In this document: one piece after another, positions 16,408-54,519 of the stretch
Position numbering within the stretch: position 1 is the first letter of the stretch
Layout of the letters: each line of letters opens with the position of its first letter
IMG/VR virus record: IMGVR_UViG_3300034022_000723
Location: 62,001 to 116,519 of that record
Reading direction: 5' to 3' (one strand)
Source of the DNA: an uncultured virus (IMG/VR IMGVR_UViG_3300034022_000723)
Taxonomy: Duplodnaviria > Heunggongvirae > Uroviricota > Caudoviricetes
DNA length: 54,519 bases
Notes under the pieces: generated by a model
The model's input: the letters and a program-made list of their open reading frames with translations, nothing else
What the model was told of the DNA's origin: nothing
Database searches by the model: none
Made by a program: the position numbers and the translations under genes

Positions 16408-16650
16408 TTATGCTCTTTGTCCTCCGTTTATTCTACCCGTTAATATATTTACTACTTCGTTGTCTATTTCTTCCACAATTTGTTCCGACATTAATCTCGT
16501 TAATTCAGCCTCAGCATCAATTGAGTAAACGGTATTTAAATCATCAACCAATTCAGGTCTCCATTGAGCACGTAGTGTTCTAACAATATTCTGAATACCT
16601 TCCGATTGAATTGTTATCCCATGAAAAAATCTAAACTCTCTAACTCCCAT
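16408..16650 (-). CDS. 80-aa protein: N-terminal FRFFHG tag plus gp23-like major capsid fragment
   Basis: RTLRAQWRPELVDDLNTVYSIDAEAELTRLMSEQIVEEIDNEVV resembles the gp23 block R-x-L-[KR]-A..ELAQDL..DA[DE]AEL..EI..EI.RE. Confidence 0.7.
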   Translation of the reverse strand: MGVREFRFFHGITIQSEGIQNIVRTLRAQWRPELVDDLNTVYSIDAEAELTRLMSEQIVEEIDNEVVNILTGRINGGQRA

Positions 16651-16651
16651 A

Positions 16652-16897
16652 TTATTGTTTTGGTCTAGCATAAAACTTAAATGTTTTACCAGTGGTGCTG
16701 TCGGTAAAAGTCATTATTGATTGGTTTGTGTTAGGTATTGTAATAACAACTTCAGGTCTTTCTACCGTTTCATCTGCGGTTGCAAAAATCTGAGGTTCAT
16801 CATTATCAAATTGAACAACCCATTCACATGGCATGTACTTGATAATAGTGTTTTCAATTTGAACTTCCTCTTTTTTCTTTTTTGTTGACTTCGCCAT
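16652..16897 (-). CDS. Hypothetical protein
   Basis: 81 aa, coupled on both sides; ends TFKFYARPKQ. Confidence 0.65.
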   Translation of the reverse strand: MAKSTKKKKEEVQIENTIIKYMPCEWVVQFDNDEPQIFATADETVERPEVVITIPNTNQSIMTFTDSTTGKTFKFYARPKQ

Positions 16898-18148
16898 TTA
16901 TTTAACTCTATTTAATTTAGGTAGTATCAGTTTAGTTTGTTGTGGTATAGTAATGAATGGTGTTAATATACTTTTAAATTTTTCTATCATTTTACTTAAT
17001 GAAAAATTATTTTTATTTTCTTCTTTTAATATTTTAGATTTAGTTAAAAATTTATTATAATCTTTTTTAACTAATTTTAAAACCTCAACCACCTCATTGT
17101 AATTAGCGGTAAACCATTTAGAACCTTTAATTATAAAAGTATCAACCGCACTATCATCAACTTCAGTTAATTTACCACCAACCATGATTGAATTATTGAT
17201 AGACAAAAAATCTTTATGACCTGACCAGTTAGATGCGATTACAGGTTTACCAGTCATAGTGAACTCTAATAGAGGTCTACCGAATCCCTCACCTTTAGTA
17301 ATTGATACCATTGATTTAATTTTAGGATGATTATATAAATCGTTCATTTCTTTATTAGTTAAATCACCAAATAATAAATAAATAGAAGGTGGATTTTTTA
17401 TATCACCAACAATTTCTTTTATTTTTTTCCTAAATGATTCTCTCTCTTTTACTGAAAAATTAGCGGAAGATGTTTTAAGAACTAACGCGGGTTTATCTTT
17501 TTCATCTTTAAATGATTCCACAAAACATCTAATTAACATACCAACATCTTTTCTATCTTGACCAAGGTTACCCTTTAACCAATGACCAACAAAAAGATAA
17601 GCAAAATTTTCTTTGATATCTAATTTAAAATCTTTATTAATTACATCATTATAAATTGATATGTCCGCACCTTCAAATAAAACCTCAATAGGTTTTTCTA
17701 TTTTATGTTGTTTTAATAGTTTATCACTATCTTTTTCTTTTTCATCATATACTGTTGATAAAAGAACTTCTTTAGAAAAATTAGATGTTGCAATGATTAA
17801 ATCCATTCTATTACAACCATCAACCCAATCTTTAGGTGCAATGGTTGTTTCAATACCGGCAGTTATACCAATGTTAAATTTACCAAATCTTCTAAATTCA
17901 TTTGGTACTGTAACTTGAACGTAAATTTCGGGCAAACCCTCAAAAGAATTAACAATATTACTTTCAATCCACTGATGAAATAAATTGTCTTTTTCTAATG
18001 CGGTCATTGGTGTTGAACCCCACACACAACTATCAATTTTAATATCAAACATATTCATTTGATATAACGATTCTAATAAATCTCTTGAATGTGAACCATA
18101 TCCACTTCTTGTTTTAATTGGTCCTCTAAATAATAACGTTGGTTTCAT
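16898..18148 (-). CDS. GT4-like glycosyltransferase
   Basis: RSGYG, KGEGFGRPLLEF, PVIASNWSGH. Confidence 0.85.
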   Translation of the reverse strand: MKPTLLFRGPIKTRSGYGSHSRDLLESLYQMNMFDIKIDSCVWGSTPMTALEKDNLFHQWIESNIVNSFEGLPEIYVQVTVPNEFRRFGKFNIGITAGIETTIAPKDWVDGCNRMDLIIATSNFSKEVLLSTVYDEKEKDSDKLLKQHKIEKPIEVLFEGADISIYNDVINKDFKLDIKENFAYLFVGHWLKGNLGQDRKDVGMLIRCFVESFKDEKDKPALVLKTSSANFSVKERESFRKKIKEIVGDIKNPPSIYLLFGDLTNKEMNDLYNHPKIKSMVSITKGEGFGRPLLEFTMTGKPVIASNWSGHKDFLSINNSIMVGGKLTEVDDSAVDTFIIKGSKWFTANYNEVVEVLKLVKKDYNKFLTKSKILKEENKNNFSLSKMIEKFKSILTPFITIPQQTKLILPKLNRVK

Positions 18149-19506
18149 TAAACTATTTTATATAAATTAAATCTTTCACGTGGTGTGAATTTTTTTATTG
18201 TTGTCTCAATACCTTCACTCATAGCATCACACATTACTTTTGATGACAGGTTTTTAATTGCAAATTCCCTTCCTTTCAAACCGTTATGTTTTCTTAATTC
18301 TTTATCTGTCGTATATATTTCCATTATTTTACTCGCAACTTCTTCATCGTTAACTCTATCGTCAAATATGTAAGGAGTAATAGGTGAACCATTTATGTTA
18401 ATTGCTGATGGCCAAACTGGTAAAACCCATTCACCGTGTCGGGTATGGTTATGTTTCTTTTTATTACTTAATGTTTCAATATCAATATAATCATCTGCAG
18501 TATAATCAAATCCACATTGGTCTTGTAATCCACCAGTAATATTAACAATAATAGGTGTACCCGCCATTATACTTTCCGCAGTACCCAAACCAAATCCTTC
18601 ATTACTTGCAATGTTAACAGTACAATCGGCAATGTTATATAATTCATTTAACTTTTCGGCTTCAATTTTATTAGTTGAGAATACAACATTGTAATCAGGA
18701 CACAATTTATCTTTAACAGCATATAAATCAGTACCATTATTATCTATTGGTGTTGTATGTAATAACAAGACACATTTATCCGAATCTTCTTTTGACAATT
18801 TATCACAAAATAATCTATAAGAATAAATTAAATCTGATGTTTGTTTTCTTCTAATGTTTCTACTGTTATAAAATAACACGAAACTATATTCTTTATCACC
18901 AAACAATTGTTTCTTGGTTTCTGTTAAATCAATATCTAATGGTTTGAAAACGTTTGGATTAATTCCATGTGGAACATAACTAACTTGCCAATCTTCTAAT
19001 GGTTTACGAATACCATCGTCCATTTTACCCACACGATTAACAATACCATAAGTTAATTTAGAAATACATCCTAACCAATCACAACTTTCGTAGTAATCTT
19101 TATTATATGATGGATCAGGAAGATTATCCCAAATATGATAATAAAGAATTGGAACTTGTTGTCTAATCTCGTGTTCATTATCATACAACCATTGCCAATA
19201 ATGAGGGTCGGTGAAATGTAATATGGCGTCTATCTTTTCTTCTTTAAGAATTGTCCTTAAAACATTAATATCCCCATAACCATTATATGGTATGATTTTT
19301 AATTCGGCATCTTTAACACCAGTTCTTTTTCTCACATCATCATTACAATCAACAAATTTACCGGTTTCGGGGTGATTAATACCTGCGCCTAATTGTATCC
19401 AATTAAACCTATCAACGGTACCCATTACGAATTCTTTAGACATTGTTGAAATACCTGAAGTCATTCGTAAATCGTCCGATAATAATAATATTCTTTTTTT
19501 ACCCAT
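18148..19506 (-). CDS. GT4-like glycosyltransferase
   Basis: VPHGIN, NEGFGLGTAES, TGGLQDQ; start taken at MGKKRILL. Confidence 0.85.
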   Translation of the reverse strand: MGKKRILLLSDDLRMTSGISTMSKEFVMGTVDRFNWIQLGAGINHPETGKFVDCNDDVRKRTGVKDAELKIIPYNGYGDINVLRTILKEEKIDAILHFTDPHYWQWLYDNEHEIRQQVPILYYHIWDNLPDPSYNKDYYESCDWLGCISKLTYGIVNRVGKMDDGIRKPLEDWQVSYVPHGINPNVFKPLDIDLTETKKQLFGDKEYSFVLFYNSRNIRRKQTSDLIYSYRLFCDKLSKEDSDKCVLLLHTTPIDNNGTDLYAVKDKLCPDYNVVFSTNKIEAEKLNELYNIADCTVNIASNEGFGLGTAESIMAGTPIIVNITGGLQDQCGFDYTADDYIDIETLSNKKKHNHTRHGEWVLPVWPSAININGSPITPYIFDDRVNDEEVASKIMEIYTTDKELRKHNGLKGREFAIKNLSSKVMCDAMSEGIETTIKKFTPRERFNLYKIV

Positions 19507-34292: not shown

Positions 34293-34322
34293 AATCCTCA
34301 CAGAAATGTGGGGATTTTTTTT
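34293..34322 (+). terminator. Intrinsic terminator
   Basis: aatcctcaca-gaaa-tgtggggatt plus T run. Confidence 0.8.
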
Positions 34323-34329
34323 GTATTAT

Positions 34330-34360
34330 TTTGTATATTCAAAAACATTTCATATCTTTG
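34330..34360 (+). promoter_or_regulatory. Bacteroidota-type promoter
   Basis: TTTG-N19-TATCTTTG, ATG 5 nt later. Confidence 0.7.
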
Positions 34361-34365
34361 TTGGT

Positions 34366-34779
34366 ATGAATATATTACTAATAATTTTTCTAATATTGGT
34401 TTGGGCAACCTCATCAGTATATGTGATGTATTATCATAATAAACATTACACATTAGGTTTGGATATGGTAATAGGTGCAATATTGTTAGGACCAATATTG
34501 GCTTTAATAGTAGGAAAGGATGTTGAAGAGAAGAAGAAATATTATGGGGTAATGGAACAGGAGAGTAATAATAGACATAGAGGATGGTTTAGAACAATGT
34601 CAGAAATTAATAGACAACGAATGACAAGTTTTGGTAGATCCATTCCACCTCCACCACCTATATCACGAATTGAACGAGCACAATTAGAAAGAGATGAAGC
34701 AATTAGGTCAGCAAGAGAAAGAGTAGATAAAAATAAATTAAAAGACTTCAAATTTTTGAGGAGTAATGTTAAAGATTGA
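34366..34779 (+). CDS. Two-TM membrane protein with C-terminal FKFLRS tag
   Basis: Start MNILL; poly-Pro; ends DFKFLRSNVKD. Confidence 0.65.
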   Translation: MNILLIIFLILVWATSSVYVMYYHNKHYTLGLDMVIGAILLGPILALIVGKDVEEKKKYYGVMEQESNNRHRGWFRTMSEINRQRMTSFGRSIPPPPPISRIERAQLERDEAIRSARERVDKNKLKDFKFLRSNVKD

Positions 34780-38688: not shown

Positions 38689-38922
38689 ATGAAGGTAATT
38701 TTAACCGAAGGTCAATATAACAAACTCATCTTGGAATTTTACGATAGAGATAAACTATATAGTAGAGAACGTATTGTGAATAGTTTAAAATCTGCACCAA
38801 AATATATTAAACAATATATTAAAAAATTACCACATATAGATGTGACTGATGACCAAGGTAATAAGAAGGTTTTAACTAAAATACCCGAAGTTCTTTACCA
38901 ATATCTCCACGGAAATTTTTAA
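38689..38922 (+). CDS. Small putative head protein
   Basis: TATTTATA 4 nt upstream; MKVILTEGQYNKLILE leader. Confidence 0.55.
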   Translation: MKVILTEGQYNKLILEFYDRDKLYSRERIVNSLKSAPKYIKQYIKKLPHIDVTDDQGNKKVLTKIPEVLYQYLHGNF

Positions 38923-42014: not shown

Positions 42015-42944
42015 ATGGAGGTATTAATACAACACAATGTACACGCAGGATTAGGGGACTATACTCATTCTATTTATAGATATTTTTATTTGGTTGAAGA
42101 GTTAAAAAAAATAGGATTTAGACATATAACTTTATACGTTAATATGGAAAGAACCTCGATGTTTAATAAAGATTATTTTTTTGTTTTATACGATAGAAAA
42201 GTATTTGAAGAATTGTTTGATAATATTATAATTTCAGATAATAAAATTGGGACTGAAAATTATGATAATTTAAAATTATTTTATGTTAATGGACATGAAG
42301 AAATTGGAATGAATCAATTTGATATATTCATTGATTATAATGATGAGAAATTTGAATTATTTAAAATAAATTTACATAATTTTTTTGTACCTAACACACT
42401 TAAAAAATATAGATATCTTTTTAGTGAATATATTATGAACAAATATAGAGAAACTAATGTTCATAAAAATGAAGAATACGTTGCAATTCAATTTAGAGCA
42501 GGGGATAGTAAAGACAATGAAGATTTATATAAAAATCATGAAGAACAATTTAAAAAAATAATATCTGAAGAAAATAAAGTTTTTGTTTGTTCTAATTCAT
42601 ATAAATTCAAAGAATACATTAAAAGTTTTAATTATGATAATGTTTTTATGTTTGATTTTCCATTTGAAAAAGAATATGGAAATCATTTAGGTGCAATCCC
42701 TTTTACAGAAAATTTTAACCATAATGAATATCAAACAAGGACTCTACATGCTGCAATTGATATGTTAACTTTATCACAATCTAAAGAAATTTACTCTTTT
42801 AATTATTTTGGGTATGTAGACTCAAATTTTATAAAATTGGCAATATCTAAAAATGTTAAATTTAATATTATTCCATTAATAGGTGGTATGATGTGGAAAC
42901 CCGAAAATTTTATAAACGATGAAGATATTAATAGGTGGGGATAG
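42015..42944 (+). CDS. O-fucosyltransferase/NodZ-like glycosyltransferase
   Basis: AGLGD, AIQFRAGD, FVCSN, AAIDMLTLSQS, SNF. Confidence 0.65.
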   Translation: MEVLIQHNVHAGLGDYTHSIYRYFYLVEELKKIGFRHITLYVNMERTSMFNKDYFFVLYDRKVFEELFDNIIISDNKIGTENYDNLKLFYVNGHEEIGMNQFDIFIDYNDEKFELFKINLHNFFVPNTLKKYRYLFSEYIMNKYRETNVHKNEEYVAIQFRAGDSKDNEDLYKNHEEQFKKIISEENKVFVCSNSYKFKEYIKSFNYDNVFMFDFPFEKEYGNHLGAIPFTENFNHNEYQTRTLHAAIDMLTLSQSKEIYSFNYFGYVDSNFIKLAISKNVKFNIIPLIGGMMWKPENFINDEDINRWG

Positions 42945-43578
42945 TTGGGGACTTGGTGAATGGCCACAAGAAACAAATCATAGAGGAATATGGCAATACT
43001 TTGAAGAAGATGGTCATGAAGTGACAATAAAGGCCGTACCTGGTGAATCAAATAAAACATCCATATCACATATGTGTAATTATGTAAATGGAAATTACGA
43101 TTATGTTTTTTGGTTTCAATCAGACCCATTAAGAGATTTAAGACCTTATGATGATTTTGGGAACACAATAAAAAATTACAATGATTTAATAGAACAATCT
43201 AATTTTTTATTAGATGAAAGTTATAAAGAATTAAATAATAGAACAAATTGTAAAATTTATTGTATCGGAGGATGTTCTAAATTAAATGTTGATTTAATTT
43301 CAAAGTATAAAAATTTAATACCTTTTGTTGAAAGTTTGACGGAGTTAATACTTGTTGATTACAAACATCCCGAAATATGGCACAGCGATTGGATAAACTA
43401 TGTGGAAAGATTAGACGAAAGTATAATTGATTTTTTGTTACCAAATAAAATGAAACAAGATTCTTTATCTGAAGTTGAAGAATATAGAAAATATTTTTGG
43501 CCCGATGGAAGTCACCCAAATAGACACGGACATAAAGTTTTATATGATTTTATTCTTAAAAATTGTGATATTTTTTAA
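42919..43578 (+). CDS. SGNH/GDSL-like protein
   Basis: GDSW, PGESN, DGSHPN. Confidence 0.7.
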   Translation: MKILIGGDSWGLGEWPQETNHRGIWQYFEEDGHEVTIKAVPGESNKTSISHMCNYVNGNYDYVFWFQSDPLRDLRPYDDFGNTIKNYNDLIEQSNFLLDESYKELNNRTNCKIYCIGGCSKLNVDLISKYKNLIPFVESLTELILVDYKHPEIWHSDWINYVERLDESIIDFLLPNKMKQDSLSEVEEYRKYFWPDGSHPNRHGHKVLYDFILKNCDIF

Positions 43579-44350
43579 GATACTCATAAAACATTTCCGA
43601 TTGTATTCTATGTCCACTTTCACCTAAATGTGAGTCAGGTATTTCATCATTTGTTTCTTGTTTAATATTTTTTCCTCCTCTTTTATATACTTCTCTAAAA
43701 ATGGTAAAATGGTGATCCCAATTTGGTCCACCGTTACCAACTTCAAAATTACCAGCATATTGATTACAAATATATTTTTTTTGGTTTAAAATTTCTATTG
43801 GTAATGTATTGATAATTTTATGATCTGCCGACCAATAGTACACATGACAACCTATTTTTTCACATAACGTATCTATAATTTTTTCATAATTATATATTTC
43901 ATCAACATAAAACGGATGTTCTGATATTTTTACCGCTATTTCCATTTGTGTCGATTCAGTTATATGATGTTTAAAATGGTCTGCTTTATTCGCCCCCATC
44001 CTTACCCATGTGTTAATTGGTTTTCCCATATACATACCTTCATTACCATCTGTATCATAAAAAGTACTGGCCCACCTAAATCTATTCAAATACGACCAAT
44101 TTATTATAATGATATCATCTTTTTTAAATAAATCACAATTTTCACATATTGTATGAAATGTCTCATGATTGGAAGAACCACCAATAGCTTTAACATTAGT
44201 CTCCATACCAAGTTTTTCAGATAATATTTCATGCCAAACAGGAGGTAAATTCCCACCTCTCCATTCTTTCCAAACCTTATACCAAGGAAATGATTTATCT
44301 AAATTGTGTCCCTCAGTAAAACTATCTCCAAATAAATGTAACGTATTCAT
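43556..44350 (-). CDS. SGNH/GDSL-like protein
   Basis: GDSF, GGSSN, DSHLG. Confidence 0.7.
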   Translation of the reverse strand: MNTLHLFGDSFTEGHNLDKSFPWYKVWKEWRGGNLPPVWHEILSEKLGMETNVKAIGGSSNHETFHTICENCDLFKKDDIIIINWSYLNRFRWASTFYDTDGNEGMYMGKPINTWVRMGANKADHFKHHITESTQMEIAVKISEHPFYVDEIYNYEKIIDTLCEKIGCHVYYWSADHKIINTLPIEILNQKKYICNQYAGNFEVGNGGPNWDHHFTIFREVYKRGGKNIKQETNDEIPDSHLGESGHRIQSEMFYEYLKKYHNF

Positions 44351-44429
44351 AGTAATTAAATATAATTAATTTTCTTTGTATTTTAAATAAAAATTCATAT
44401 ATTAGTCATATATATTAGAAAGGACTAAC

Positions 44430-44822
44430 ATGAAAAGATTTGTATTCTTCCACGGATATCAAGAATTACATCCACTATTGGATATTGATTGGGATGCAAT
44501 CAACAGATTGAATAACATCAATACTATTCTTACTCCAAATTGGGGTGGAATAACGTATACACCTACTTGGGTTGTTAATCCAGGTCTCATTCAATACACA
44601 CCACCAAACTATACTATAACCACAACACCCGGCACTGGTACATTTACAATTCCATACAACGGTACAATTAACACAGCAACAGGGTATAGTTTAACAACAT
44701 CAAATCCAAACGGAACAACATATACAACAACAGGAACAGTTACAACAGGAGGAATAGGAGGAACTTTAACAACTGGTACTGCAACATTTAGAAGTGGAGC
44801 ATTTACCTCAAAATTTATGTAA
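44430..44822 (+). CDS. Thr/Gly-rich protein with N-terminal FVFFHG tag
   Basis: ORF translation. Confidence 0.65.
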   Translation: MKRFVFFHGYQELHPLLDIDWDAINRLNNINTILTPNWGGITYTPTWVVNPGLIQYTPPNYTITTTPGTGTFTIPYNGTINTATGYSLTTSNPNGTTYTTTGTVTTGGIGGTLTTGTATFRSGAFTSKFM

Positions 44823-45262
44823 TGACTAAATTCAAGTTTTTCAGGGGGTATATTGGAACGTTAGATATAATGGACGGACAAACATATGCGACAGCATCAT
44901 TATATTACCCAAGATTAGATTCCAATAATGAAATGGAAAGATGGTTTGCCGAACGTGATTTACAAACTATAACTCATGAACAATACATGTTGAATAGAGA
45001 CATGTTAATTGAACAAGAAAGAATAAGAAGATTAGGAATGATAAATCATTCAAGGGAAACTGATAATCAAATTAGATTGTTTCAAGCAACAACAACGGTA
45101 ACCGTAAATCCAACACCATGGACTAAGGTTAAGATATTTGGAACAAGAGTTAAATTGGTTTTAATTGAAACTTGGAAGTTGGAACCTATCGGTGTTGTGG
45201 TGATGACACTGTTAGTGTCAGTTGTTACATTCATAGGTGTAATGAAATTATTCGGAACATGA
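44822..45262 (+). CDS. Protein with N-terminal FKFFRG tag and C-terminal TM
   Basis: ORF translation. Confidence 0.65.
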   Translation: MTKFKFFRGYIGTLDIMDGQTYATASLYYPRLDSNNEMERWFAERDLQTITHEQYMLNRDMLIEQERIRRLGMINHSRETDNQIRLFQATTTVTVNPTPWTKVKIFGTRVKLVLIETWKLEPIGVVVMTLLVSVVTFIGVMKLFGT

Positions 45263-45579
45263 TAAAACCATTCAAATTTTTGACGGATAATGATGATGAT
45301 ATGTCAGAAGGATATATCAATTTAGAAAATGTAGAGATAGCTTCTTGGATGTGGGAAAGTCTAATGGAACCATCAGATGCGACGTACGATATTGTTTCGG
45401 TGGACACTAACGGTATTATTGAATTTTTAAGAATGTTTCCATCACAAATGGTAATTCCTGTGAGTTCTATCGTTGGTCCAAATGGTGTGGTTCATAATAG
45501 CGAAAACGAAGGAAATGGGTGGGGATTTAACATTCAAACAGACCCAATTCATATTACATATTTAAGTTACACCCCATAA
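45259..45579 (+). CDS. Acidic protein with N-terminal FKFLTD tag
   Basis: ATGA-coupled start MIKPFKFL. Confidence 0.65.
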   Translation: MIKPFKFLTDNDDDMSEGYINLENVEIASWMWESLMEPSDATYDIVSVDTNGIIEFLRMFPSQMVIPVSSIVGPNGVVHNSENEGNGWGFNIQTDPIHITYLSYTP

Positions 45580-45598
45580 TATTTATAAAATAAAAACC

Positions 45599-45721
45599 AT
45601 GAGTTCAAAATTTTTTAACAATTCACAACAACCTAAGGCGGTTAAAGGAGATAAGAAACCTATCCCTACCAAACCTATCAAGAACAACACACAGATTAAA
45701 AAGACAGGAAGAGGTAAATAA
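45599..45721 (+). CDS. 40-aa basic micro-protein ending TGRGK
   Basis: Own translation; TATTTATA at 45580. Confidence 0.55.
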   Translation: MSSKFFNNSQQPKAVKGDKKPIPTKPIKNNTQIKKTGRGK

Positions 45722-45722
45722 A

Positions 45723-45753
45723 TTTGGTATATACGAAGATTGTTGTATATTTG
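45723..45753 (+). promoter_or_regulatory. Bacteroidota-type promoter
   Basis: TTTG-N19-TATATTTG, ATG 4 nt later. Confidence 0.7.
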
Positions 45754-45757
45754 CTTT

Positions 45758-45931
45758 ATGAAAGTAAAAATAACAATTAAATACCACATAGAGGTTGGTA
45801 ATGAGGTCATTGAGTGTGATTCACTTGAACAGGCTGAACGTAAGATGAAACATATGTCAGATGTTGATAAGTTTCTTATTAAGACGGAACTAAAGGGAGA
45901 TAAAGTATTAAATCAATATTTGTTAGGTTAA
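45758..45931 (+). CDS. Hypothetical protein
   Basis: Start MKVKIT after promoter. Confidence 0.5.
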   Translation: MKVKITIKYHIEVGNEVIECDSLEQAERKMKHMSDVDKFLIKTELKGDKVLNQYLLG

Positions 45932-45976
45932 CAATTTCTTAACATATACCCAAGGCAACTTTTTCTATTTATGTAG

Positions 45977-46663
45977 ATGAAAATAGAAGCGTTATTTATC
46001 TCCGATGTTCATTTAGGTTCTAAAGGTTCAAATGCCGATATGGTATTAGATTTACTCAAACAGTATCAACCTGAATATCTATTCTTAGTTGGTGACATAA
46101 TAGACGGATGGTTACTTAAACGTAAGTTCCGTTGGCCTCAATCACATACAAATGTATTAAGAAAGATAATGTCTTATTCCAAGAATGGAACCAAAGTAAT
46201 TTACATACCAGGAAATCATGATGATTTTTTGAGGGAGTATGGTGAGTTTTCTTTTGGTAATATAGAAGTACATAACGAATATGTATGGAACAATACTTTT
46301 ATTACACACGGGGATTTATATGATGGTGTGGTTAAACTTAAATGGTTGGGAGTATTAGGTTCAATAGGTTACGATATGGCGATATCCATAGATAGAAAAT
46401 TAAAGAAATTGGGAATGAAACGTTCATTATCTAAGTTCTTAAAGGATAAGGTAAAGGAAGCGGTTAAATTCATTACACAATTTGAGGTGGAATTAACTAG
46501 ACAAGCAAAGAAACATCATTGTACATCCGTTATATGTGGTCATATTCATCATCCTGAGGATAGAGATATTGATGGTGTTAGATATTTAAATTGTGGGGAT
46601 TGGATTGAGAATAATTCCTACATCATCTACAACGACAATGAATACACTGTTATTAAAGGATAA
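45977..46663 (+). CDS. UDP-2,3-diacylglucosamine hydrolase-like (LpxH/YbbF) metallophosphoesterase
   Basis: SDVHLG, GDIIDGW, PGNHD, HGD, GHIH, NCGDW. Confidence 0.85.
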   Translation: MKIEALFISDVHLGSKGSNADMVLDLLKQYQPEYLFLVGDIIDGWLLKRKFRWPQSHTNVLRKIMSYSKNGTKVIYIPGNHDDFLREYGEFSFGNIEVHNEYVWNNTFITHGDLYDGVVKLKWLGVLGSIGYDMAISIDRKLKKLGMKRSLSKFLKDKVKEAVKFITQFEVELTRQAKKHHCTSVICGHIHHPEDRDIDGVRYLNCGDWIENNSYIIYNDNEYTVIKG

Positions 46664-47354
46664 GTTAACCATAGTAATCCCATGTAAAAATGAGGGGGTA
46701 AACATCTACGAGTGTTTGGGTTTCATATCTAAACAAAGAGGGATTGCAGGTACACGAGTAATCATTTCAGATAATTCAGACGATGAGGAATCATTGAGGT
46801 GGATATATCAAACAGAATCAGATTACAAATACTCATTAAAAATAGAAGTAATAGAGGGCGGGTTTCCCGCTCAAGCAAGGTTAAACGGATCAAAGTTAGT
46901 TACCACACCTTATATGTTATTCTTGGATGCTGATATAATGTTGTTTAAACAAGGTTTGTTGGAAACGGTGGTAGAATATGAGAAAGACCTGGTGACCGTC
47001 CCATTTGAGACGGAAACAGGGTTTAATTGGATTTTTAGGATGTTTGATGTTACCCAAAGATTGTCAGTGTTTCTTGGAACACCATTTGCGGTTGGTGGAT
47101 TTCAGTTATTTAAAACAGAATCATATTGGAACATCGGTGGATATAACCCAAATGAAAAGTTTGCCGAAGATTATTCTTTATCACAAAAGATTAATAGTCA
47201 GAACTTTAAGATACATAAAACTGGTGGTGTGTGGACATCAGCAAGAAGATTTAAGAATAAGGGGGTTTTTTATATGATTAAGATATTGATTAAATCTTAT
47301 TTTAACCGAAACAATCCTGAGTTCTTTAAGAAGTCCCACGGATATTGGGATTAA
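46638..47354 (+). CDS. GT2 glycosyltransferase
   Basis: IVIPCKNE, FLDAD, AED, TSARRF. Confidence 0.85.
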   Translation: MNTLLLKDKLTIVIPCKNEGVNIYECLGFISKQRGIAGTRVIISDNSDDEESLRWIYQTESDYKYSLKIEVIEGGFPAQARLNGSKLVTTPYMLFLDADIMLFKQGLLETVVEYEKDLVTVPFETETGFNWIFRMFDVTQRLSVFLGTPFAVGGFQLFKTESYWNIGGYNPNEKFAEDYSLSQKINSQNFKIHKTGGVWTSARRFKNKGVFYMIKILIKSYFNRNNPEFFKKSHGYWD

Positions 47355-47382
47355 AACCAATATAATAGGGTATTTATACCTA

Positions 47383-47703
47383 ATGAATAGGAAAGAGTAT
47401 AGACGTTTATTACAAGACCCGAAGTGGAAGATTAAAGCGTCATTTATAAGAAAGAGAGATAACCACACCTGTGTTAGGTGTGGAAAGAAATCACACAGAT
47501 TACAGGTACATCATACCAAATACGAAGATGGTCTTATGCCGTGGGAATACGATAACAGCACATTGGAATCATTATGTTCATATTGTCATAAGAAGGAACA
47601 TAATATTAAACCAAAGAATAAAAGATTACCAAGAAAGAAAAAGAGTGTAAAAGAACCACAACCTATTAGTAGAGTTATTAAGGTTAGAAAATTAGATGAA
47701 TAA
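47383..47703 (+). CDS. HNH endonuclease
   Basis: RDNHTCVRCG..LQVHH..LCSYCHKKEH. Confidence 0.85.
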   Translation: MNRKEYRRLLQDPKWKIKASFIRKRDNHTCVRCGKKSHRLQVHHTKYEDGLMPWEYDNSTLESLCSYCHKKEHNIKPKNKRLPRKKKSVKEPQPISRVIKVRKLDE

Positions 47704-47741
47704 TATTTGGATTATTCGTTAATATTTTTTATATTATACAT

Positions 47742-48584
47742 GTGGAAAATATTTGTAATAAGAAAATAATTAATTTTACTCCGACAGGTACGCAAACTAC
47801 TCGTGAAAATTCATACGCTCCATTATTACCAAATGAGATAATTGAGGATGTTCATGAGGCAAATGAATTAGGAATTTCAATTGTTCATTTACACGCTAAA
47901 GATGAGGAAACATTAAAGAATACATATAAAAAAGAAACCTATCAAAAAATAATAGAAGGGATAAAAAAACATTGTCCTGAATTGTTAATTTGCGTTTCAT
48001 TAACTGGTAGAAACTTTCCCGAGTTAGAGAAAAGATCTGAGGTGTTGCAATTATATCCTGATATGGGTTCTTTAACAATGTCATCATTAAACTTTCCAAC
48101 TGGTACGGCAATTAACGAACCTGAGATGATTTTATCATTGATAAATGAAATGGAAAAGTATGGAGTACAACCCGAAATAGAATGTTTTGATTCTGGTATG
48201 TTAAATTATACAAATTATTTAATATCAAAAAATATATTAAATCCACCGCATCACATCAATGTTATATTGGGAAATATTTACAACGGACAATGTGATTTGA
48301 ATACACTTTCATCAATTAAAAATAAGACACCAAATAATTCATATGTATGTTTAGGTGGAATAGGTTCGCAACAATTAAAGAGTACAACATATGGTCTGTT
48401 AGATTTTGACGGAATAAGGATTGGACTTGAGGATAATCTTTATTATAGAGACAAAGAAAAAACAACAAACATAGAGTTGTTAAAACGAACACATAGGATA
48501 ATGGATGAATTAGATATGTTTCACTACACATCAAAAGAATTAAAAGAAAAAGGATATGGAAACAGACATAGTAATATTAGGTAA
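47742..48584 (+). CDS. Beta-keto acid cleavage enzyme (BKACE/DUF849, Kce-like)
   Basis: PTG, VHLHAKD, PEIECFD, RIGLEDN. Confidence 0.88.
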   Translation: MENICNKKIINFTPTGTQTTRENSYAPLLPNEIIEDVHEANELGISIVHLHAKDEETLKNTYKKETYQKIIEGIKKHCPELLICVSLTGRNFPELEKRSEVLQLYPDMGSLTMSSLNFPTGTAINEPEMILSLINEMEKYGVQPEIECFDSGMLNYTNYLISKNILNPPHHINVILGNIYNGQCDLNTLSSIKNKTPNNSYVCLGGIGSQQLKSTTYGLLDFDGIRIGLEDNLYYRDKEKTTNIELLKRTHRIMDELDMFHYTSKELKEKGYGNRHSNIR

Positions 48585-49191
48585 AGGAGATGCAATTGTT
48601 TGCATGATTTTAGATAACTTAAATTCCAATGGTATTTACGGTAATATATCAATCTACAATAATTTATCATTACCCATATTGAGAGAAATAAGTCATCCCG
48701 ATTTTAATTTAGATGTTCGTGAAGATGTTGACATTAAACAATTTAAGAAATATGTTTTAGGTGTTTATGACCCTAAACATAAAATTAAAATTATTGAAAC
48801 ATTAAATCCTGAAATAAAAAAATTTCAAAGCATTTTATTTAATGATTTAGTAATTTCTAAAACATCTACAATAGGTATAGGATGCTTAATTGATGCAAAT
48901 ATTTCAATTGCGGCACATACTAAAATCGGTGATTTTGTTTCAATAAACAGAAATGTATCAATTGGACATCATTGTAATATTGGAAAGTTTGTTTCAATAA
49001 ATCCTGGCTGTAATATCGCCGGAAATGTTAACATAGGTGAAGGGACATTAATTGGTATGGGAACTAATGTTTTAAACACAGTTCAAATTGGTAAAAATAC
49101 AATAATTGGTGCGGGATCAAACGTAACAAGAGACATTCCTGATAATGTTGTTGCATATGGTAACCCATGTAAAATAATAAGAAATAATTAA
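48556..49191 (+). CDS. PglD/NeuD-like sugar acyltransferase (left-handed beta-helix)
   Basis: Hexapeptide repeats; IGAGSNVTRDIP..AYGNPC. Confidence 0.88.
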   Translation: METDIVILGKGDAIVCMILDNLNSNGIYGNISIYNNLSLPILREISHPDFNLDVREDVDIKQFKKYVLGVYDPKHKIKIIETLNPEIKKFQSILFNDLVISKTSTIGIGCLIDANISIAAHTKIGDFVSINRNVSIGHHCNIGKFVSINPGCNIAGNVNIGEGTLIGMGTNVLNTVQIGKNTIIGAGSNVTRDIPDNVVAYGNPCKIIRNN

Positions 49192-49192
49192 T

Positions 49193-49846
49193 ATGGCACA
49201 AGGAGTACATAAAATAACTGAAGATTTTGAAAAGTCACTATGTGACTACACAGGATCCCCACATGCAATTGCGTTGGACAATATGAGTAATGCATTATTT
49301 TTAGCATTATATTATGAAAAAAATATAAAAAAAACATTAACAAGTGACAGTGTAGATTGTCCATCTAAAACATATCCATCTGTTCCTTGTGAAATAATTC
49401 ATGCTGGACTTAAAGTTAATTTTATTCCTGTGGAAGGAAAAACAATTAAAGGTTCATATAGATTATCACCATCTAATGTTATCGATTCGGCATTAAGTTT
49501 TACCGCTAATATGTATCAATCAGGAACACATATGTGTTTATCGTTTACTGGACCATATAAAACCTTAAAATTAAGTAAAGGTGGTGCAATTTTAACTGAT
49601 GACTATGATGCAATGTTATGGTTTAAAAGAGCAAGATTTAGTGGTAGAAGAGAATGTTCTTACCATGATGATAATTTTGATATGTTAGGTTGGAATTTTT
49701 ATATGATGCCAGAACTTGCGGCAAGAGGGTTATTAATGATGAGTCAATTTTATAACTTGGATGGAACAAAAAAACAAAACGAGGATTTGGAATTACCATA
49801 TCCTGATTTATCTAAATTTGAAATATATAAAAGTAAAAAAATATGA
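49193..49846 (+). CDS. Short DegT-like aminotransferase
   Basis: DSA, LSFTGPYKTL..GGAILT, GWNFYM; only 217 aa. Confidence 0.75.
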   Translation: MAQGVHKITEDFEKSLCDYTGSPHAIALDNMSNALFLALYYEKNIKKTLTSDSVDCPSKTYPSVPCEIIHAGLKVNFIPVEGKTIKGSYRLSPSNVIDSALSFTANMYQSGTHMCLSFTGPYKTLKLSKGGAILTDDYDAMLWFKRARFSGRRECSYHDDNFDMLGWNFYMMPELAARGLLMMSQFYNLDGTKKQNEDLELPYPDLSKFEIYKSKKI

Positions 49847-50595
49847 GAGTTGACCAAGTTTATGTATCTAATTCAATAAGGTTTTTCAAAGACGGTTTAT
49901 TAAAAAGATATAAATTAAAAGAATATTATGACATAAATAAACCGGCTTTGTTTTTCGGACTTTCGGAAAGTAGCAACTTAATTAAAGAACACCAAGGAAT
50001 TAAAATACTTTTACCGTGTACACCAAATGATTATCCTAATATTAGTAATTATGAAAATACTTTTTTTATATGTTCGGAGAATTATAATTTACCTTATAAT
50101 GTTGTTAGGAAAAGTATCACTCCCGAGATTAAAGATTATAGTATGTTTACTCCAAATGTTTTGGGGGATAAAGTTTATTATTATAGTGGATTTAAACACG
50201 GATGGAATTGGAAAAATAATATTATAGACGAAATACAGAAAAATATTAATTTTGAAATAATCACAACATCACATGAGAATTTAAAAGATTATTATGATAT
50301 AAAACATCTTAAAGATAATTTTTATGATAAATGTTTTTTAAATTTAAATTTTAGTGGTGGCAATGGTTTAGCAACTGTAAAGGAATTAGGATTAATGGGT
50401 AGAAAAACTGTCTTTAAATCAGGACATAAAAATAACATACAGAGGTTGGAATTTCCCAATTTCATTAATTATTCTTCAATTGAAGATGTTATTGAAATTA
50501 TTGAAAACGAAAGTAAAAAAATTGGAACAATACAACCTTCCATAGATGCGCATAATGTTGGTGATGAATGGCTTAATTTAAATTATTGGTTATAA
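49843..50595 (+). CDS. Hypothetical, possibly GT-B-like
   Basis: GNGLATVKELGLMGRKT resembles a GT-B donor-binding segment. Confidence 0.5.
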   Translation: MRVDQVYVSNSIRFFKDGLLKRYKLKEYYDINKPALFFGLSESSNLIKEHQGIKILLPCTPNDYPNISNYENTFFICSENYNLPYNVVRKSITPEIKDYSMFTPNVLGDKVYYYSGFKHGWNWKNNIIDEIQKNINFEIITTSHENLKDYYDIKHLKDNFYDKCFLNLNFSGGNGLATVKELGLMGRKTVFKSGHKNNIQRLEFPNFINYSSIEDVIEIIENESKKIGTIQPSIDAHNVGDEWLNLNYWL

Positions 50596-50605
50596 AATTA
50601 AAAAA

Positions 50606-51556
50606 ATGAAAGATTTAATTGTAATAACGGCACATTGCCCAACTGAAGAACAAGAATTAGAATTGGAAAAATGTATCAACTCAGTAGTTGGTATGGACGC
50701 ACATATCCTATTAATTTCACACACTCACATTCCAATACATATACAGAAAAAATGTAATTATTATGTGTATGATTATAATAACGAGACATCAACTGACCAT
50801 AATTTAATTGGATATAAACATTACAGATTTGACGGTAAAATAATTCAATCAAAATTTTTTCATAAAACATTTTATGGGTTTGCTATTTATAGAATGTTTT
50901 GTATTGCCAGTCAAATTGCAATAAATTTTGGTTATGAAAATATACACTACATTGAATATGATTGTGAGTTATTAGATAAAAATTTAATTAATGAAAATAG
51001 TAAATTACTTGAAAATTATGACTCGGTAATTTATACCGATAATGGAAAAGAAAATGGGTTTTTATTTGGTTCATTTAAATCATTTAAAGTTAAAACGTTA
51101 CCTGAAAATTTTAAAAATTATAACAAATCATTTATTGAAGATGAAATAAAGAAATCTGAAATTAAACATTTGGAGTTTTTTAGTAAAAATCTTTTCACAA
51201 ACTCAGGTAAAGTTTTTTTCGGTAATGAACCCTCAAACGAAAGATTTAAAAGAGGTAAATGGTTTTATAATAGAGATTTACATTATACTTTTTTTTATAA
51301 TCCATTAGATAAAACTTTAAATATTTTTTATAATTCACAAAAAGATAAAATTGAAAAAATTTTTGTGATGGTTAATAATCAAAAAACAGTAAAGATTGAA
51401 ATACAACCAAATTGTTGGTATATTAAACCATTGGGTATTTTTGATGAAATAAACAATGTTAGAATAGATAATTCAGAAAAGATAATTTATGAGTTATCTT
51501 TTGATAAAGAATTTAGAGATTTTTTTAAAATAAATTCATACATTTCAAATGAATAA
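50606..51556 (+). CDS. Hypothetical, possibly GT-A-like
   Basis: LIVITAH, LISH, YIEYD. Confidence 0.5.
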   Translation: MKDLIVITAHCPTEEQELELEKCINSVVGMDAHILLISHTHIPIHIQKKCNYYVYDYNNETSTDHNLIGYKHYRFDGKIIQSKFFHKTFYGFAIYRMFCIASQIAINFGYENIHYIEYDCELLDKNLINENSKLLENYDSVIYTDNGKENGFLFGSFKSFKVKTLPENFKNYNKSFIEDEIKKSEIKHLEFFSKNLFTNSGKVFFGNEPSNERFKRGKWFYNRDLHYTFFYNPLDKTLNIFYNSQKDKIEKIFVMVNNQKTVKIEIQPNCWYIKPLGIFDEINNVRIDNSEKIIYELSFDKEFRDFFKINSYISNE

Positions 51557-51584
51557 ATTCAAATTTTATAATTAAAAAATTAGA

Positions 51585-51821
51585 TTAACCATTTTCATTT
51601 AATCGTTGAGTCAATTCATTAGTTAATATACGAATCCATTCGTCTTTTGTTTTCCCATTGTATGGGTCGGGTATTTCGGTTAGACCCACGCCACGTAAAC
51701 ATAAAATAGTGTTCTGAATGTGACTAGAGGTCATATAAAAAATAGGTGTATCCCGACCATTTTGAGACCTCCAACAGACATTCCTATCAAATATTTCCCC
51801 CCTTAAGAATTTAAACTCCAT
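51585..51821 (-). CDS. Small protein with N-terminal FKFLRG tag
   Basis: Start MEFKFLRG 3 nt after a promoter -7 box. Confidence 0.65.
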   Translation of the reverse strand: MEFKFLRGEIFDRNVCWRSQNGRDTPIFYMTSSHIQNTILCLRGVGLTEIPDPYNGKTKDEWIRILTNELTQRLNENG

Positions 51822-51824
51822 AAA

Positions 51825-51872
51825 CAAAGATAAGATTAATTTTGTATATTCCAAATAATATCCTTATCTTTG
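51825..51872. promoter_or_regulatory. Overlapping divergent Bacteroidota-type promoters
   Basis: Minus TTTG-N19-TATCTTTG (51855-51825); plus TTTG-N20-TATCTTTG (51841-51872). Confidence 0.7.
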
Positions 51873-51979
51873 TTATATGAATATATCAATAACTTTATCG
51901 TTGGTTCTTTTACTTCTCCCTTATGAGATGGAAAAAACCATAAACAAATTAAATTAAAAGATATAAAAATTTATAAAAT

Positions 51980-52231
51980 ATGATATTCATTTTATTCTAC
52001 ATAATAGGATTTATCCTAACACTAACATTCTTAAAGTTATTCGGTAAGAAGATGGAGATTGATTATGACCCACCACACGATGAGGATTATGACGACTATA
52101 AAAATAATGCTGAGGCCTATCTATTCTTTTCATTGAGTTGGTTTGTAACGGCACCAATGTTTATTGTTGTTGCAACGATTCAGTTGTTATATAAATTCAC
52201 CCAATGGTTTATGAAATACCCAAACGTTTAA
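51980..52231 (+). CDS. Two-TM membrane protein
   Basis: Hydrophobic ends, acidic loop. Confidence 0.6.
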   Translation: MIFILFYIIGFILTLTFLKLFGKKMEIDYDPPHDEDYDDYKNNAEAYLFFSLSWFVTAPMFIVVATIQLLYKFTQWFMKYPNV

Positions 52232-52232
52232 T

Positions 52233-52433
52233 ATGATACTACTAATATACTGGATACTAACAACAATATATGGAACATATTGGTTGGTTAAACACCCATC
52301 AGACAGAAGATACGAGGATGATGATGAATTTACATTATTGGAAGTTATTGCTAAGACCGTTCCTGCCGCATTATTATCGTGGCTATTTGTCCCAATGTTT
52401 TTATTACATCAAATTAAATTTAAAAGAAGGTGA
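52233..52433 (+). CDS. Two-TM membrane protein
   Basis: Same architecture as upstream gene. Confidence 0.6.
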   Translation: MILLIYWILTTIYGTYWLVKHPSDRRYEDDDEFTLLEVIAKTVPAALLSWLFVPMFLLHQIKFKRR

Positions 52434-52603
52434 TTGAATTTAAATTTCTTAATGAGAACACAGACAATCGACCCAAAACAAGGGACGAGGTACTTATTAT
52501 AGTTAGAGATAACCTAAACATACTATTCGATGGGAATTATAGAAATCATGTTGATATAGACGACATCGTTGAACAAGTGTGTAGAAATTTAAGAATAGAA
52601 TAA
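52430..52603 (+). CDS. 57-aa protein with N-terminal FKFLNE tag
   Basis: Own translation (GTGA-coupled) MIEFKFLNENTDN... Confidence 0.6.
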   Translation: MIEFKFLNENTDNRPKTRDEVLIIVRDNLNILFDGNYRNHVDIDDIVEQVCRNLRIE

Positions 52604-52604
52604 A

Positions 52605-52793
52605 ATGGATGTATTAGAACAATACGAAAGGTATAATAAAATATATCAGATTGAATTAAGAGAAGTTGCGACACCATATCATTTACAACTTATGAAAGAG
52701 ATTGATATGTTGGAGAAATTAACAATAGATGAATTTAAAGAAAAGTTAAACAACCCTGAATTTAAAAAGAAATATGGGACTCTCAACATTTAG
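52605..52793 (+). CDS. Hypothetical protein
   Basis: ORF. Confidence 0.5.
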   Translation: MDVLEQYERYNKIYQIELREVATPYHLQLMKEIDMLEKLTIDEFKEKLNNPEFKKKYGTLNI

Positions 52794-53223
52794 ATTTTTA
52801 AGGGGAATAATCAGTGCAAGAATAGTTAACATAGAAGAAAGATTAACATTAGCACAACCAAGATATCCAAGGATACCTATGGGTCAAATTCCATATCCTG
52901 AAAATTGTGAAACACCAGGAGAAAAAAGAACATTTAGATTAGGATGGAGAGCTTGTGAAAGAGGTATGGAGATACATGAAAACCTATACAGTAATCAAGA
53001 AAATTTAATTTATTCATTACATAGAATATGGGAAAGTGGATATCTTGAATGTTTTCTTCACCACCCATCAAGACAAATACAACCAACCGATGAGGAGTCT
53101 TATCAGGAGGGATGGGCAACCGCTCAATTAGGTCTCCCATTAAACGAAAACCCACATACATACGGGTCACATCAATTTAATATGTGGTATGTGGGGTGGA
53201 ATGACTTTGTGGATAACCATTAG
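52774..53223 (+). CDS. FRFLRG-tagged protein with two Rmf/CrpP-like repeats
   Basis: GWRACERG..ENLY..WESGY and GWATAQLG..ENPH..WYVGW. Confidence 0.6.
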   Translation: MGLSTFRFLRGIISARIVNIEERLTLAQPRYPRIPMGQIPYPENCETPGEKRTFRLGWRACERGMEIHENLYSNQENLIYSLHRIWESGYLECFLHHPSRQIQPTDEESYQEGWATAQLGLPLNENPHTYGSHQFNMWYVGWNDFVDNH

Positions 53224-53263
53224 AATATTTCGTATATTCAAACTAATATCTTATATTTGTATC

Positions 53264-53725
53264 ATGACCGACGCTCAAATAGTAATATCAGTAATTTTTG
53301 CTGTGATATTTTTCGTAATTCTTATCTTTAATGTGGTTTCATACCCAAACGTGAAATTATATAAAAAGAAATATGATGAGTTGGAACGCGGTGTGTATAA
53401 GTATGAACCAGCAGAACATACTGAATCAAATTATTTTTATCTATACAGTTATGATATTACTACCTTAACATTTACTCGCACCGATGTTGCTATTATATTC
53501 TTTTTAGATGGTGATATAAAACTAACGGATAATTCATACATACACAAAAGTCATTTGTTTATGTCGTTTGTTAAATGGTATCATTGGAGAAAGTTTCAAA
53601 AGTTAAAAGATGAGTTGGTTGAGACATATAATATTAGAAATCAAAGAGGTCGTTATGAACAATCCCATCAGGAACGATATATGAAACAACAGAACAAATT
53701 AGATTTTAAATTTTTTAGAGGATGA
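53264..53725 (+). CDS. Membrane-anchored protein ending FKFFRG
   Basis: Start MTDAQ 4 nt after TATATTTG; N-terminal TM. Confidence 0.65.
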   Translation: MTDAQIVISVIFAVIFFVILIFNVVSYPNVKLYKKKYDELERGVYKYEPAEHTESNYFYLYSYDITTLTFTRTDVAIIFFLDGDIKLTDNSYIHKSHLFMSFVKWYHWRKFQKLKDELVETYNIRNQRGRYEQSHQERYMKQQNKLDFKFFRG

Positions 53726-54186
53726 TAAAACCATTTAAATTTTTTGAAGGTAGAATAAAAAGGTTGTATCATTATAATGCTCCGTACATATCATTGCTAC
53801 GAACTCCGCCAGGTAGTTATTACGATAGAACAATTAATCCAGATTTGTATGGTGGAGTAAGATTGAGTGAGTTATCAGATAGAGTTCAACAAATAGTGAG
53901 AAGTCCAGAATATATACCAGCAGGTTATGTTCAAGTGCCAATACCACAAACTTTTTATGATGGATTTGTTATCAGTCGTGTAAGAACTAAAATGAGACGA
54001 AATATAAGTTGGAGAGGGTATGAAACTTCTATACAAGAAAGAAATGGTGAGGTAATAATATTAAAGATTGTAAGTGGAATTAATATTGGTGGAATGTTTC
54101 ACATAGTTTATTTAATTACAAGAGACGGGAATACTGAAAATTATAGAGTAAGTGTCCCATTAGTCAATTTACAAAGAAGAGGATAA
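53722..54186 (+). CDS. Protein with N-terminal FKFFEG tag
   Basis: MIKPFKFFEGRIKRLYHY. Confidence 0.65.
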   Translation: MIKPFKFFEGRIKRLYHYNAPYISLLRTPPGSYYDRTINPDLYGGVRLSELSDRVQQIVRSPEYIPAGYVQVPIPQTFYDGFVISRVRTKMRRNISWRGYETSIQERNGEVIILKIVSGINIGGMFHIVYLITRDGNTENYRVSVPLVNLQRRG

Positions 54187-54187
54187 T

Positions 54188-54451
54188 ATGGCAAAAGCAA
54201 GAAAGATTTTATCAAACACTATAAGTGAATTGTTAAAAGAAACATCGTTGGAAACAAGAATTAAAATGTCATGTTGGTTTATGATTAACAATCTTATTCA
54301 TGAATCAGGCGCAAGAGAAGAAGCTGCGTGGGATGAAACAAATCCAAAAGACATTGAGATGATGAAACTATTGGATGATAAAACAAAAGAACTAACGGAA
54401 ACAATATTAAGAAATATTAAAGAATGGGAAGAAGATGGTAAACCAATTTAA
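54188..54451 (+). CDS. Hypothetical protein
   Basis: ORF. Confidence 0.55.
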   Translation: MAKARKILSNTISELLKETSLETRIKMSCWFMINNLIHESGAREEAAWDETNPKDIEMMKLLDDKTKELTETILRNIKEWEEDGKPI

Positions 54452-54519
54452 ATTTTTTGAGGGGAGACCAAAAAGATTATATCACTACGACCTATTGGTT
54501 GGAGGTGTACCTGTTGAGG
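54435..54519 (+). CDS. 3'-partial protein with N-terminal FKFFEG tag
   Basis: Own translation MVNQFKFFEGRPKRLYHYDLLVGG... Confidence 0.6.
   Translation, partial: MVNQFKFFEGRPKRLYHYDLLVGGVPVE

Follow-up and report, generated by a model that had tools for sequence, protein, structure and literature searches.

The terminal 54.5 kb of an uncultured virus contig from IMG/VR (IMGVR_UViG_3300034022_000723, here G000, 116.5 kb) encode twelve copies of a short peptide motif of the type F-K-F-F, all in frame, nine of them at the N-terminus and three at the C-terminus of small proteins. This stretch of 54,519 nucleotides is referred to below as the window. Our analysis of the window and of related genomes indicates that the motif is very probably a real functional terminal peptide tag, borne by two dozen or more (about 25) unrelated small proteins per genome. 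It is in kind an address tag of the type of the T4 capsid-targeting sequence (CTS), with a new motif outside Pfam and PHROGs. An initial annotation, made from the letters of the window, had described the motif as a portable docking or address signal, and every copy that it named was found in frame at its place.

G000 has a G+C content of 30%, bears no end repeats and is 35% complete according to CheckV; the head-gene region is absent from it. A complete relative, G001 (335,630 bp, CheckV 100%), encodes a Gp23-type major capsid protein, a Peptidase_S77 (gp21-type) prohead protease (72.8 bits), a portal, a terminase, a sheath and a tube, and further a family-B polymerase, many glycosyltransferases, DNA methyltransferases, a sigma-70-type factor, ClpP, Hsp20 and a two-ring Clp ATPase. 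Gene calls throughout are our own crude calls of open reading frames (ORFs).

The terminal motif and its carriers

In order to control for composition, the residues of each protein were permuted 1000 times and the pattern F[KR]F[FL] was counted in real and shuffled proteins:

First 10 residues: G000, 8 against a shuffled mean of 0.06 (maximum 1); G001, 23 against 0.16 (maximum 3)
Last 12 residues: G000, 2 against a mean of 0.06 (maximum 2); G001, 2 against 0.19 (maximum 2)
Internal: G000, 1 against a mean of 1.53; G001, 5 against 3.78

A second control was restricted to ATG starts followed by at least 50 codons. In it, nine permuted motifs that are unable to overlap FKFF gave 0 N-terminal matches in G000 and 0-3 in G001, while the motif itself gave 6 and 24. 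The enrichment is therefore confined to the termini, internal copies staying at expectation, and composition is not its source.

The tagged genes of the window are as follows:

16408..16650, minus strand: capsid-fragment gene, 80 residues, N-terminal MGVRE-FRFFHG followed by a piece of a gp23-type major capsid protein; the G001 orthologue is tagged
16652..16897, minus strand: 81-residue gene, weak C-terminal copy ..TFKFYARPKQ
34306..34779, plus strand: membrane protein TM2, N-terminal hydrophobic helices, C-terminal end ..KNKLKDFKFLRSNVKD, i.e. ..DFKFLRSNVKD (tag codons 34747-34758)
44430..44822, plus strand: 130-residue gene, MKR-FVFFHG, Thr/Gly-rich body
44822..45262, plus strand: 146-residue gene, MTK-FKFFRG, C-terminal hydrophobic helix (tail-anchored; peak hydropathy 2.61 at residue 123)
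45259..45579, plus strand: 106-residue acidic gene (isoelectric point, pI, 4.05), MIKP-FKFLTD
51585..51821, minus strand: 78-residue gene, ME-FKFLRG, body matching phrog_16964, a PHROG of unknown function
52430..52603, plus strand: 57-residue ORF with a GTG start, MIE-FKFLNE, a singleton
52774..53223, plus strand: 149-residue gene, MGLST-FRFLRG, two RMF-like G-W-x-A...N-P...W-x-x-G-W repeats (sub-threshold)
53264..53725, plus strand: membrane protein TM1, a single N-terminal membrane helix, a conserved, probably cytoplasmic domain, a long helix and the C-terminal end ..NKLDFKFFRG
53722..54186, plus strand: 154-residue gene, MIKP-FKFFEG
54435..54519, plus strand: partial gene, MVNQ-FKFFEG, truncated by the contig end; the complete orthologue (G001 9673-10014) has 113 residues

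For TM2 the initial annotation had given 34366 as the start; the tag copy stands, and 34366 is merely one of several possible starts in this ORF. The G001 orthologue of TM2 ends in ..KLKDFKFLSGGK; downstream of it G001 has a further tagged gene, absent from G000. The G001 orthologue of the 81-residue gene begins with MNFKFFKG and ends in ..VFKLFTRERQ, and so is tagged at both ends. The stop codon of TM1 and the start of the tagged gene that follows overlap (ATGA), and of the 7 sources with a TM1 homologue, 6 have a tagged gene immediately downstream of it. Most tagged genes of G001, about 23, stand in head-to-tail arrays at 3.3-17.5 kb, many with overlaps of 8-14 nucleotides, and a few are found elsewhere.

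For the anatomy of the motif we compiled 136 tagged genes from nine sources, namely G000, G001 and seven loci of 16-20 kb from relatives; L008, a duplicate of L007, and evident non-coding ORFs were excluded. The fuller form reads [K/R]-x-F-[K, rarely R/N/V/I/T/M]-[F, rarely L/M]-[F/L]-x-[G/K]. Its first F lies 2 (11 genes), 3 (61), 4 (58) or 5 (6) residues past the initial Met. The residue counts depend on the search pattern, in which the first F was set and the next three positions were open to a few residues only: within these limits, position 2 holds K in 124 genes, R in 5, N in 4 and V in 3, position 3 holds F in 129 and L in 7, and position 4 holds F in 83 and L in 53. The codons behind these residues are mixed. 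TTT and TTC were counted 99 and 37 times at the first F and 91 and 38 times at the next, and AAA and AAG 98 and 26 times, against background ratios of 81/19 for TTT/TTC and 80/20 for AAA/AAG in long G001 genes; Leu at position 4 uses six codons. Synonymous positions thus vary at or above background, which supports the earlier claim that selection acts on the peptide.

Homology led to the same view. The bodies of seven tagged window genes were stripped of their tag and searched in relatives, and all 38 body homologues (the true capsid protein aside) started with the tag or a one-residue variant of it: 33 fit the pattern and five carried FIFF, YKFF, FRMF, FTFF or FMFF. Tagged homologues numbered 8 of 8 for 44822..45262, 7 of 7 for 45259..45579 and 3 of 3, one with YKFF, for 51585..51821; those of 44430..44822 had FVFF, FIFF, FKFF or FKLL at the equivalent position, and the ORF at 52430..52603 found no homologue among the relatives examined. 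The family of the 53722 gene has 399 metagenomic homologues. Among 75 of its sequences F5 is invariant and K6 and G10 are conserved in at least 90%, with residues 11-35 rich in insertions and deletions. The C-terminal F-K-F of TM1 is invariant across seven homologues at identities down to 39%. C-terminal carriers form three families (TM1, TM2 and the 81-residue protein), with the tag 2-6 residues from the end and its N-to-C order unchanged. The tag persists in orthologues at 31-39% identity, where the adjoining linker changes. The initial annotation had named two results that would speak against it, namely a lack of terminal enrichment over background and the loss of the motif from orthologues that keep their flanks; we found the opposite of both.

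That the tag is portable between unrelated bodies was also borne out. After removal of the tag, 158 pattern-positive ORFs fell into 55 BLAST clusters, 21 of them with at least two members. One of these 21 consists of evident non-coding ORFs, which leaves 20 multi-member families plus singletons, several of the latter likewise non-coding. The annotation knew no named family for the motif, and none of 101 tagged proteins of relatives reached a Pfam cut-off. A PHROGs search with 30 G000 and G001 proteins (28 tagged and two untagged array neighbours) returned one tagged match, of unknown function; two tagged proteins had no tblastn match in 50,697 phage records, and text searches of an open-access library turned up nothing in print on an FKFF motif or on FKFF in phage.

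Some bodies do resemble known proteins, as had been proposed. In the capsid-fragment gene a body of 60 residues (16408-16671) matches Pfam Gp23 (PF07068) with 45.4 bits against a cut-off of 24.4; the match covers only profile positions 135-194 of 376, so that the protein represents a mere fragment of a capsid protein. It aligns to residues 251-310 of T4 gp23, by our reading the second strand of the E-loop and the spine helix. The protein of G001 12980-13453 resembles the gp23 N-arm (PF07068, E 0.0011, below cut-off) and carries the stretch R-R-x-x-G-R-T-I-A-Q-D-L-V-P-V-Q-P, the region called Gol in T4. Judging from these alignments, parts of the phage's own major capsid protein appear to make up small tagged genes. 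Of the other proposed bodies, the sequence itself shows the membrane proteins and the Thr-rich tract. As to the 'Rmf-like' repeats, a sub-threshold resemblance is present and the cut-off is not reached: the window protein did not match RMF (PF04957) at E up to 0.01, its best orthologue (L004:9053-9502) scored 23.9 bits against a cut-off of 27.9, and the family profile found nothing in the PDB.

AlphaFold2 modelling of the 53722 family (75 sequences) left residues 1-43 without structure (predicted local distance difference test, pLDDT, <50) and folded residues about 76-150 confidently into a domain of a helix and four strands, for which Foldseek found no PDB match at E up to 0.001; the ESM Atlas returned no match of at least 0.9. 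The TM1 model, from seven sequences, was of low confidence throughout (mean pLDDT 48.7), with 29-38 at the C-terminal end. In both modelled families, with that reservation for TM1, the tag is predicted to be an exposed unstructured terminal stretch. Membrane helices are N-terminal in TM1 and TM2 and C-terminal in the 44822 family, and this placement, with the neighbouring basic residues, suggests that the tag faces the cytoplasm in the membrane carriers. Co-folding the cytoplasmic part of TM1 (residues 30-153) with the neighbouring tagged protein scored 0.00 in a run without controls and has no bearing either way.

Proposed docking to the prohead core

All carriers would dock through the tag to one common partner. 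Our first choice for this partner is a component of the prohead core, because a conserved protein of the head module ends in a similar F-x-F-aromatic tail. The tag would then act like the T4 CTS and load fast-changing accessory proteins into or onto the assembling head, and the membrane-anchored carriers would tether the assembling head structure to the membrane. We give this full mechanism a probability of about 0.3.

The head-module protein in question, p141, is the product of a 141-residue gene at G001 122449-122874 (L021:2449-2874). The head genes of G001 run in the order portal, p245, p141, Peptidase_S77 protease, a gene in the scaffold position and the Gp23-type capsid protein. The portal was upstream of p141 in 67 of 67 loci, and in 65 of 68 the protease began at most 600 nucleotides downstream. 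In place and length p141 matches T4 gp68 in the order 20-67-68-21-22-23. The G001 protein ends in ..KLFNFYKSKK, and 120 close homologues all have LFNF[Y/H/F][K/R][S/T]KK. Near-full-length representatives were taken from clusters at 50% identity, and 64 of these 99 have F-x-F within the last 14 residues, compared with 8 of 877 internal windows; the tail consensus is Y-F-[T/K/N]-F-[Y/H]-K-x-K-K. The family, to which loci L058-L137 also belong, occurs at no fewer than 600 IMG/VR loci and in 343 representative clusters, and matches neither a Pfam entry nor a cultured phage; p141 had no tblastn match in the 50,697 phage records. Its tail is the sole sequence-level link of the tag to any machine and points to the head. 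We consider this evidence moderate because Y/H is favoured in the tail at the place of the tag's F/L, because p141 is also present in relatives without tag arrays, and because neither similarity to gp68 (hhalign probability 0.25%, no sequence similarity) nor a PHROG (46 relatives searched) was found. The capsid-protein pieces in two tagged proteins also count for the head.

The likeness to T4 is in the design. In the accounts of PMC3012670 and PMC9026906 the internal proteins of T-even phages differ widely, and their one common feature is a conserved CTS that directs them to the scaffolding core, with propeptides of 10-19 residues cleaved after L/I-x-E. PMC9026906 further describes proheads that assemble on the membrane, the use of C-terminal propeptides, and the protein Alt, which has propeptides at both ends, both of them processed. 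In both systems a short terminal peptide sits on otherwise unrelated, fast-changing small phage proteins, and G001 has the T4-type prohead protease, capsid protein and head gene order.

A number of observations weigh against docking to the prohead core, besides the reservations on p141 just given. No L/I-x-E site follows the F-K-F-F tag: [L/I]-x-E occurs, scattered, in the first 25 residues of 21 of 135 tagged proteins compared with 54 of 194 untagged ones, and just 10 of 135 have Glu immediately after the tag. In G001 about 100 kb separate the arrays from the head genes, and the carriers stand outside late-type units. At least three carrier families are membrane proteins, and there are about 25 carriers per genome compared with a handful in T4. 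The motif itself also appears to differ from that of T4. T4 internal proteins are basic, unlike the mostly acidic or neutral tagged proteins, of which 23 of 33 have a pI <7; as a discriminator between the readings the isoelectric point was of no use.

Two further points on the same side come from the signals ahead of the genes and from another terminal peptide. The T4 late promoter word TATAAATA was sought, and its reverse complement TATTTATA was found ahead of genes instead. Of 442 G001 genes, 46 have this box, in its fuller form (G/T)ATATTTATA, 4-5 nucleotides or slightly more ahead of the start codon, among them the terminase, the portal, the prohead protease and several genes of the region with baseplate matches; in the window it is found, for example, just upstream of 38689 and of 45599. 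It is probably a late promoter and could mark late transcripts with almost no leader. Inside the tag arrays it precedes untagged genes only. A second N-terminal tag, M-K-[I/V/L]-[I/L]-I-[T/S]-E-x-Q-[L/Y], is carried by 12 genes with 10 unrelated bodies (77-392 residues) in G000, G001 and a related genome without F-K-F-F tags, G004, in which it was recovered by an unbiased scan for enriched words:

Window, 38689-38922 (MKVILTEGQY..)
G001, genes at 42979, 45693, 59156 and 328162
G004, genes within 113836-131271

It contains an I-T/S-E site like the cleavage motif of T4 gp21, and 8 of the 12 genes have the TATTTATA box. On account of this site and of the box, the second tag would be a better candidate for a T4-type CTS than F-K-F-F.

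If F-K-F-F is an address label, its four-residue core gives access, in each genome of an abundant uncultured phage lineage, to about 25 proteins without known function. A single peptide could then fish out the partner, and any protein could be routed to it. T-even phages would then not be alone in marking fast-changing accessory proteins with terminal address tags, and one genome may run two tag systems in parallel, F-K-F-F and I-T-E-x-Q-L.

Other possible partners for the tag

The tag could instead dock its carriers to another single hub of the groove type, such as the host beta sliding clamp, the ribosome, the division machinery or a phage protein that we did not recognise, where many mini-proteins for takeover or anti-defence would be concentrated at one site. 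We hold this as a tentative alternative, itself doubtful. A binding groove would account for the near-invariance of the first F, for a K to R ratio of 124 to 5 at position 2, within the residues admitted by the pattern, against about 2.5:1 genome-wide, and for a motif that appears at either end in a single orientation; the bodies that resemble RMF (sub-threshold) and the gp23 N-arm would fit as well. Hydrophobic-x-hydrophobic-hydrophobic on terminal tails resembles clamp-binding motifs, such as the bacterial QL[SD]LF type and the T4 gp45-binding tails, and there too a hydrophobic motif of five to six residues sits on the N- or C-terminal tails of many clients of one hub. The conserved Gln of clamp motifs is however missing from the tag, a phage clamp was not found in G001 with PF02916 or PF00712, and the large replication and core proteins of G001 (proteins of at least 150 residues outside the arrays, either end) are untagged. 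It is also hard to explain why some 25 proteins should share one host site.

An AAA+ protease as the partner is unlikely in our view. The first candidate would be the phage's own ClpC homologue with ClpP, failing which host FtsH, ClpXP or Lon; tagged early proteins would be either substrates cleared at a set time or adaptors delivering the targets bound by their bodies. G001 encodes a ClpC homologue of 670 residues (109705-111717, minus strand) which aligns to ClpC 153-794 and hence lacks the N-domain, the part of ClpC that binds adaptors. It also encodes Hsp20 (111814-112230), whose gene adjoins that of the ClpC homologue, and a ClpP (193.7 bits; 212530-213207) distinct from the S77 prohead protease. 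A tag 2-6 residues from the free end, in a stretch predicted to be unstructured and on the probable cytoplasmic side of the membrane carriers, would be well placed for such a machine, whose pore loops grip aromatic residues well, and the arrays lack the late-type box. In this the tag is like known AAA+ adaptor tethers and degrons (the ssrA tag, the SspB tail that binds ClpX, the N-terminal motifs for ClpX), very short motifs at the free end of an unstructured tail, and the phage encodes a candidate cognate unfoldase and peptidase. The Clp genes, however, belong to the core and are also found in genomes that lack the tag. The N-domain-less ClpC homologue and ClpP are found in tag-bearing G001 and G002 and also in tagless G004, where the ClpC homologue, ClpP and Hsp20 are 78%, 79% and 54% identical, and a ClpC homologue is present in the tagless huge phage LR756508. 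Moreover, threading from an end explains the same N-to-C order of the motif at both ends less well than a binding groove does, nothing at the sequence level links the tag to any Clp component, and we know of no degron with the sequence F-K-F-F. As a special form of this idea, the tagged mini-proteins could be an adaptor library whose bodies bind targets of the host or of rival phages and whose F-K-F-F hands them to the phage ClpC/ClpP; RMF-like bodies would then bind the ribosome, and capsid fragments the capsid protein or EF-Tu. This form is a long shot. Were the partner the phage's own Clp machine and not the head, the system would be of a kind so far undescribed.

It seems quite improbable that the tag works without a receptor, as a cationic-aromatic end that binds membranes or as a self-pairing strand that joins soluble carriers to TM1 or TM2. 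With 2-3 basic and three aromatic residues in eight it has the make-up for the former, the membrane-targeting ends of MinD, FtsA and MreB are likewise found at either terminus, and the position of TM1 next to a tagged gene would suit the latter. Lipid binding would however permit swaps between K and R and among F, L, I, W and Y, which were rarely observed, and carriers that already span the membrane would have no need of a lipid-binding tag.

That the motif has no common function, being a relic of tandem duplication or a translated nucleotide signal for translation start, coupling or recombination, is hardly credible: the tandem overlapping arrays, the upstream TAA stops that fall within the next tag's TTT-AAA in several genes, the shared ending ..ETI of four G001 genes and a terminal 'motif' in G000 that does come from a DNA signal might suggest it, but the codon usage given above led us to reject a nucleotide-level signal, the distance from ATG to tag varies from 2 to 5 codons, C-terminal copies exist, one of which, the end of the TM1 copy in L010, is not overlapped by any tagged gene, and the tag outlasts its adjoining linker in diverged orthologues.

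Distribution of the tag and neighbouring signals

A DNA pattern for M-I-K-P-F-K-F-[F/L] was found at 17 places on 14 contigs among the 2.9 million of IMG/VR, several of them 316-335 kb long. A cultured relative was not found: the closest cultured capsid proteins, those of Microcystis phage Mel-JY01 and Flavobacterium phage immuto, are just 41-42% identical, and tag patterns searched at two offsets were absent from both phages; LR756508 was at control level, with 1 match against 1. The same patterns gave 9 and 3 matches in G001 and 7 in G002. G004 (286.8 kb, 86% complete) and G005 have capsid proteins about 74% identical and only scattered tag matches at control level. By tblastn, TM1, TM2 and the tagged genes were unmatched in G004, except for the capsid-fragment gene, which hit the true capsid protein of that phage. 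By this distribution, the tag system is that of a single subclade of uncultured phages, about 330 kb in size and equipped with T4-type head genes. G001 shares 180 of its 442 ORFs with tagless G004, a comparison too coarse to point to the partner.

A scan for sigma-70 promoters and terminators over 43000-54519 of the window stayed at shuffle level (85 against 76.8). At G001 12628-14037 four consecutive tagged genes end in ..N-E-T-I, because the TAA stop falls in the TTT-AAA (F-K) codons of the next tag, 13 nucleotides past its ATG; such overlaps suggest translational coupling along the array. A different kind of shared ending was seen in G000 at genome coordinates 28759-63751, where 16 of 119 plus-strand ORFs end in ..L-I, ..I-I or ..L-T. 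These endings are encoded by ..TTAAT(A/T)TAA or ..ATATGA (TTAATATAA/TGA), before or overlapping the next ATG, and the last ORF of the series is ORF 3-1751 of the window. Unlike F-K-F-F, this terminal 'motif' evidently arises from a junction signal in the nucleotide sequence.

Finally, many paralogues of the SGNH/GDSL type, with N-termini in ..FG(D/C)S(F/W), are found in the window (42919-43578, and 43556-44350 on the minus strand) and at 330951-334676 of G001, a genome in which 'GCS' is the top enriched N-terminal word.

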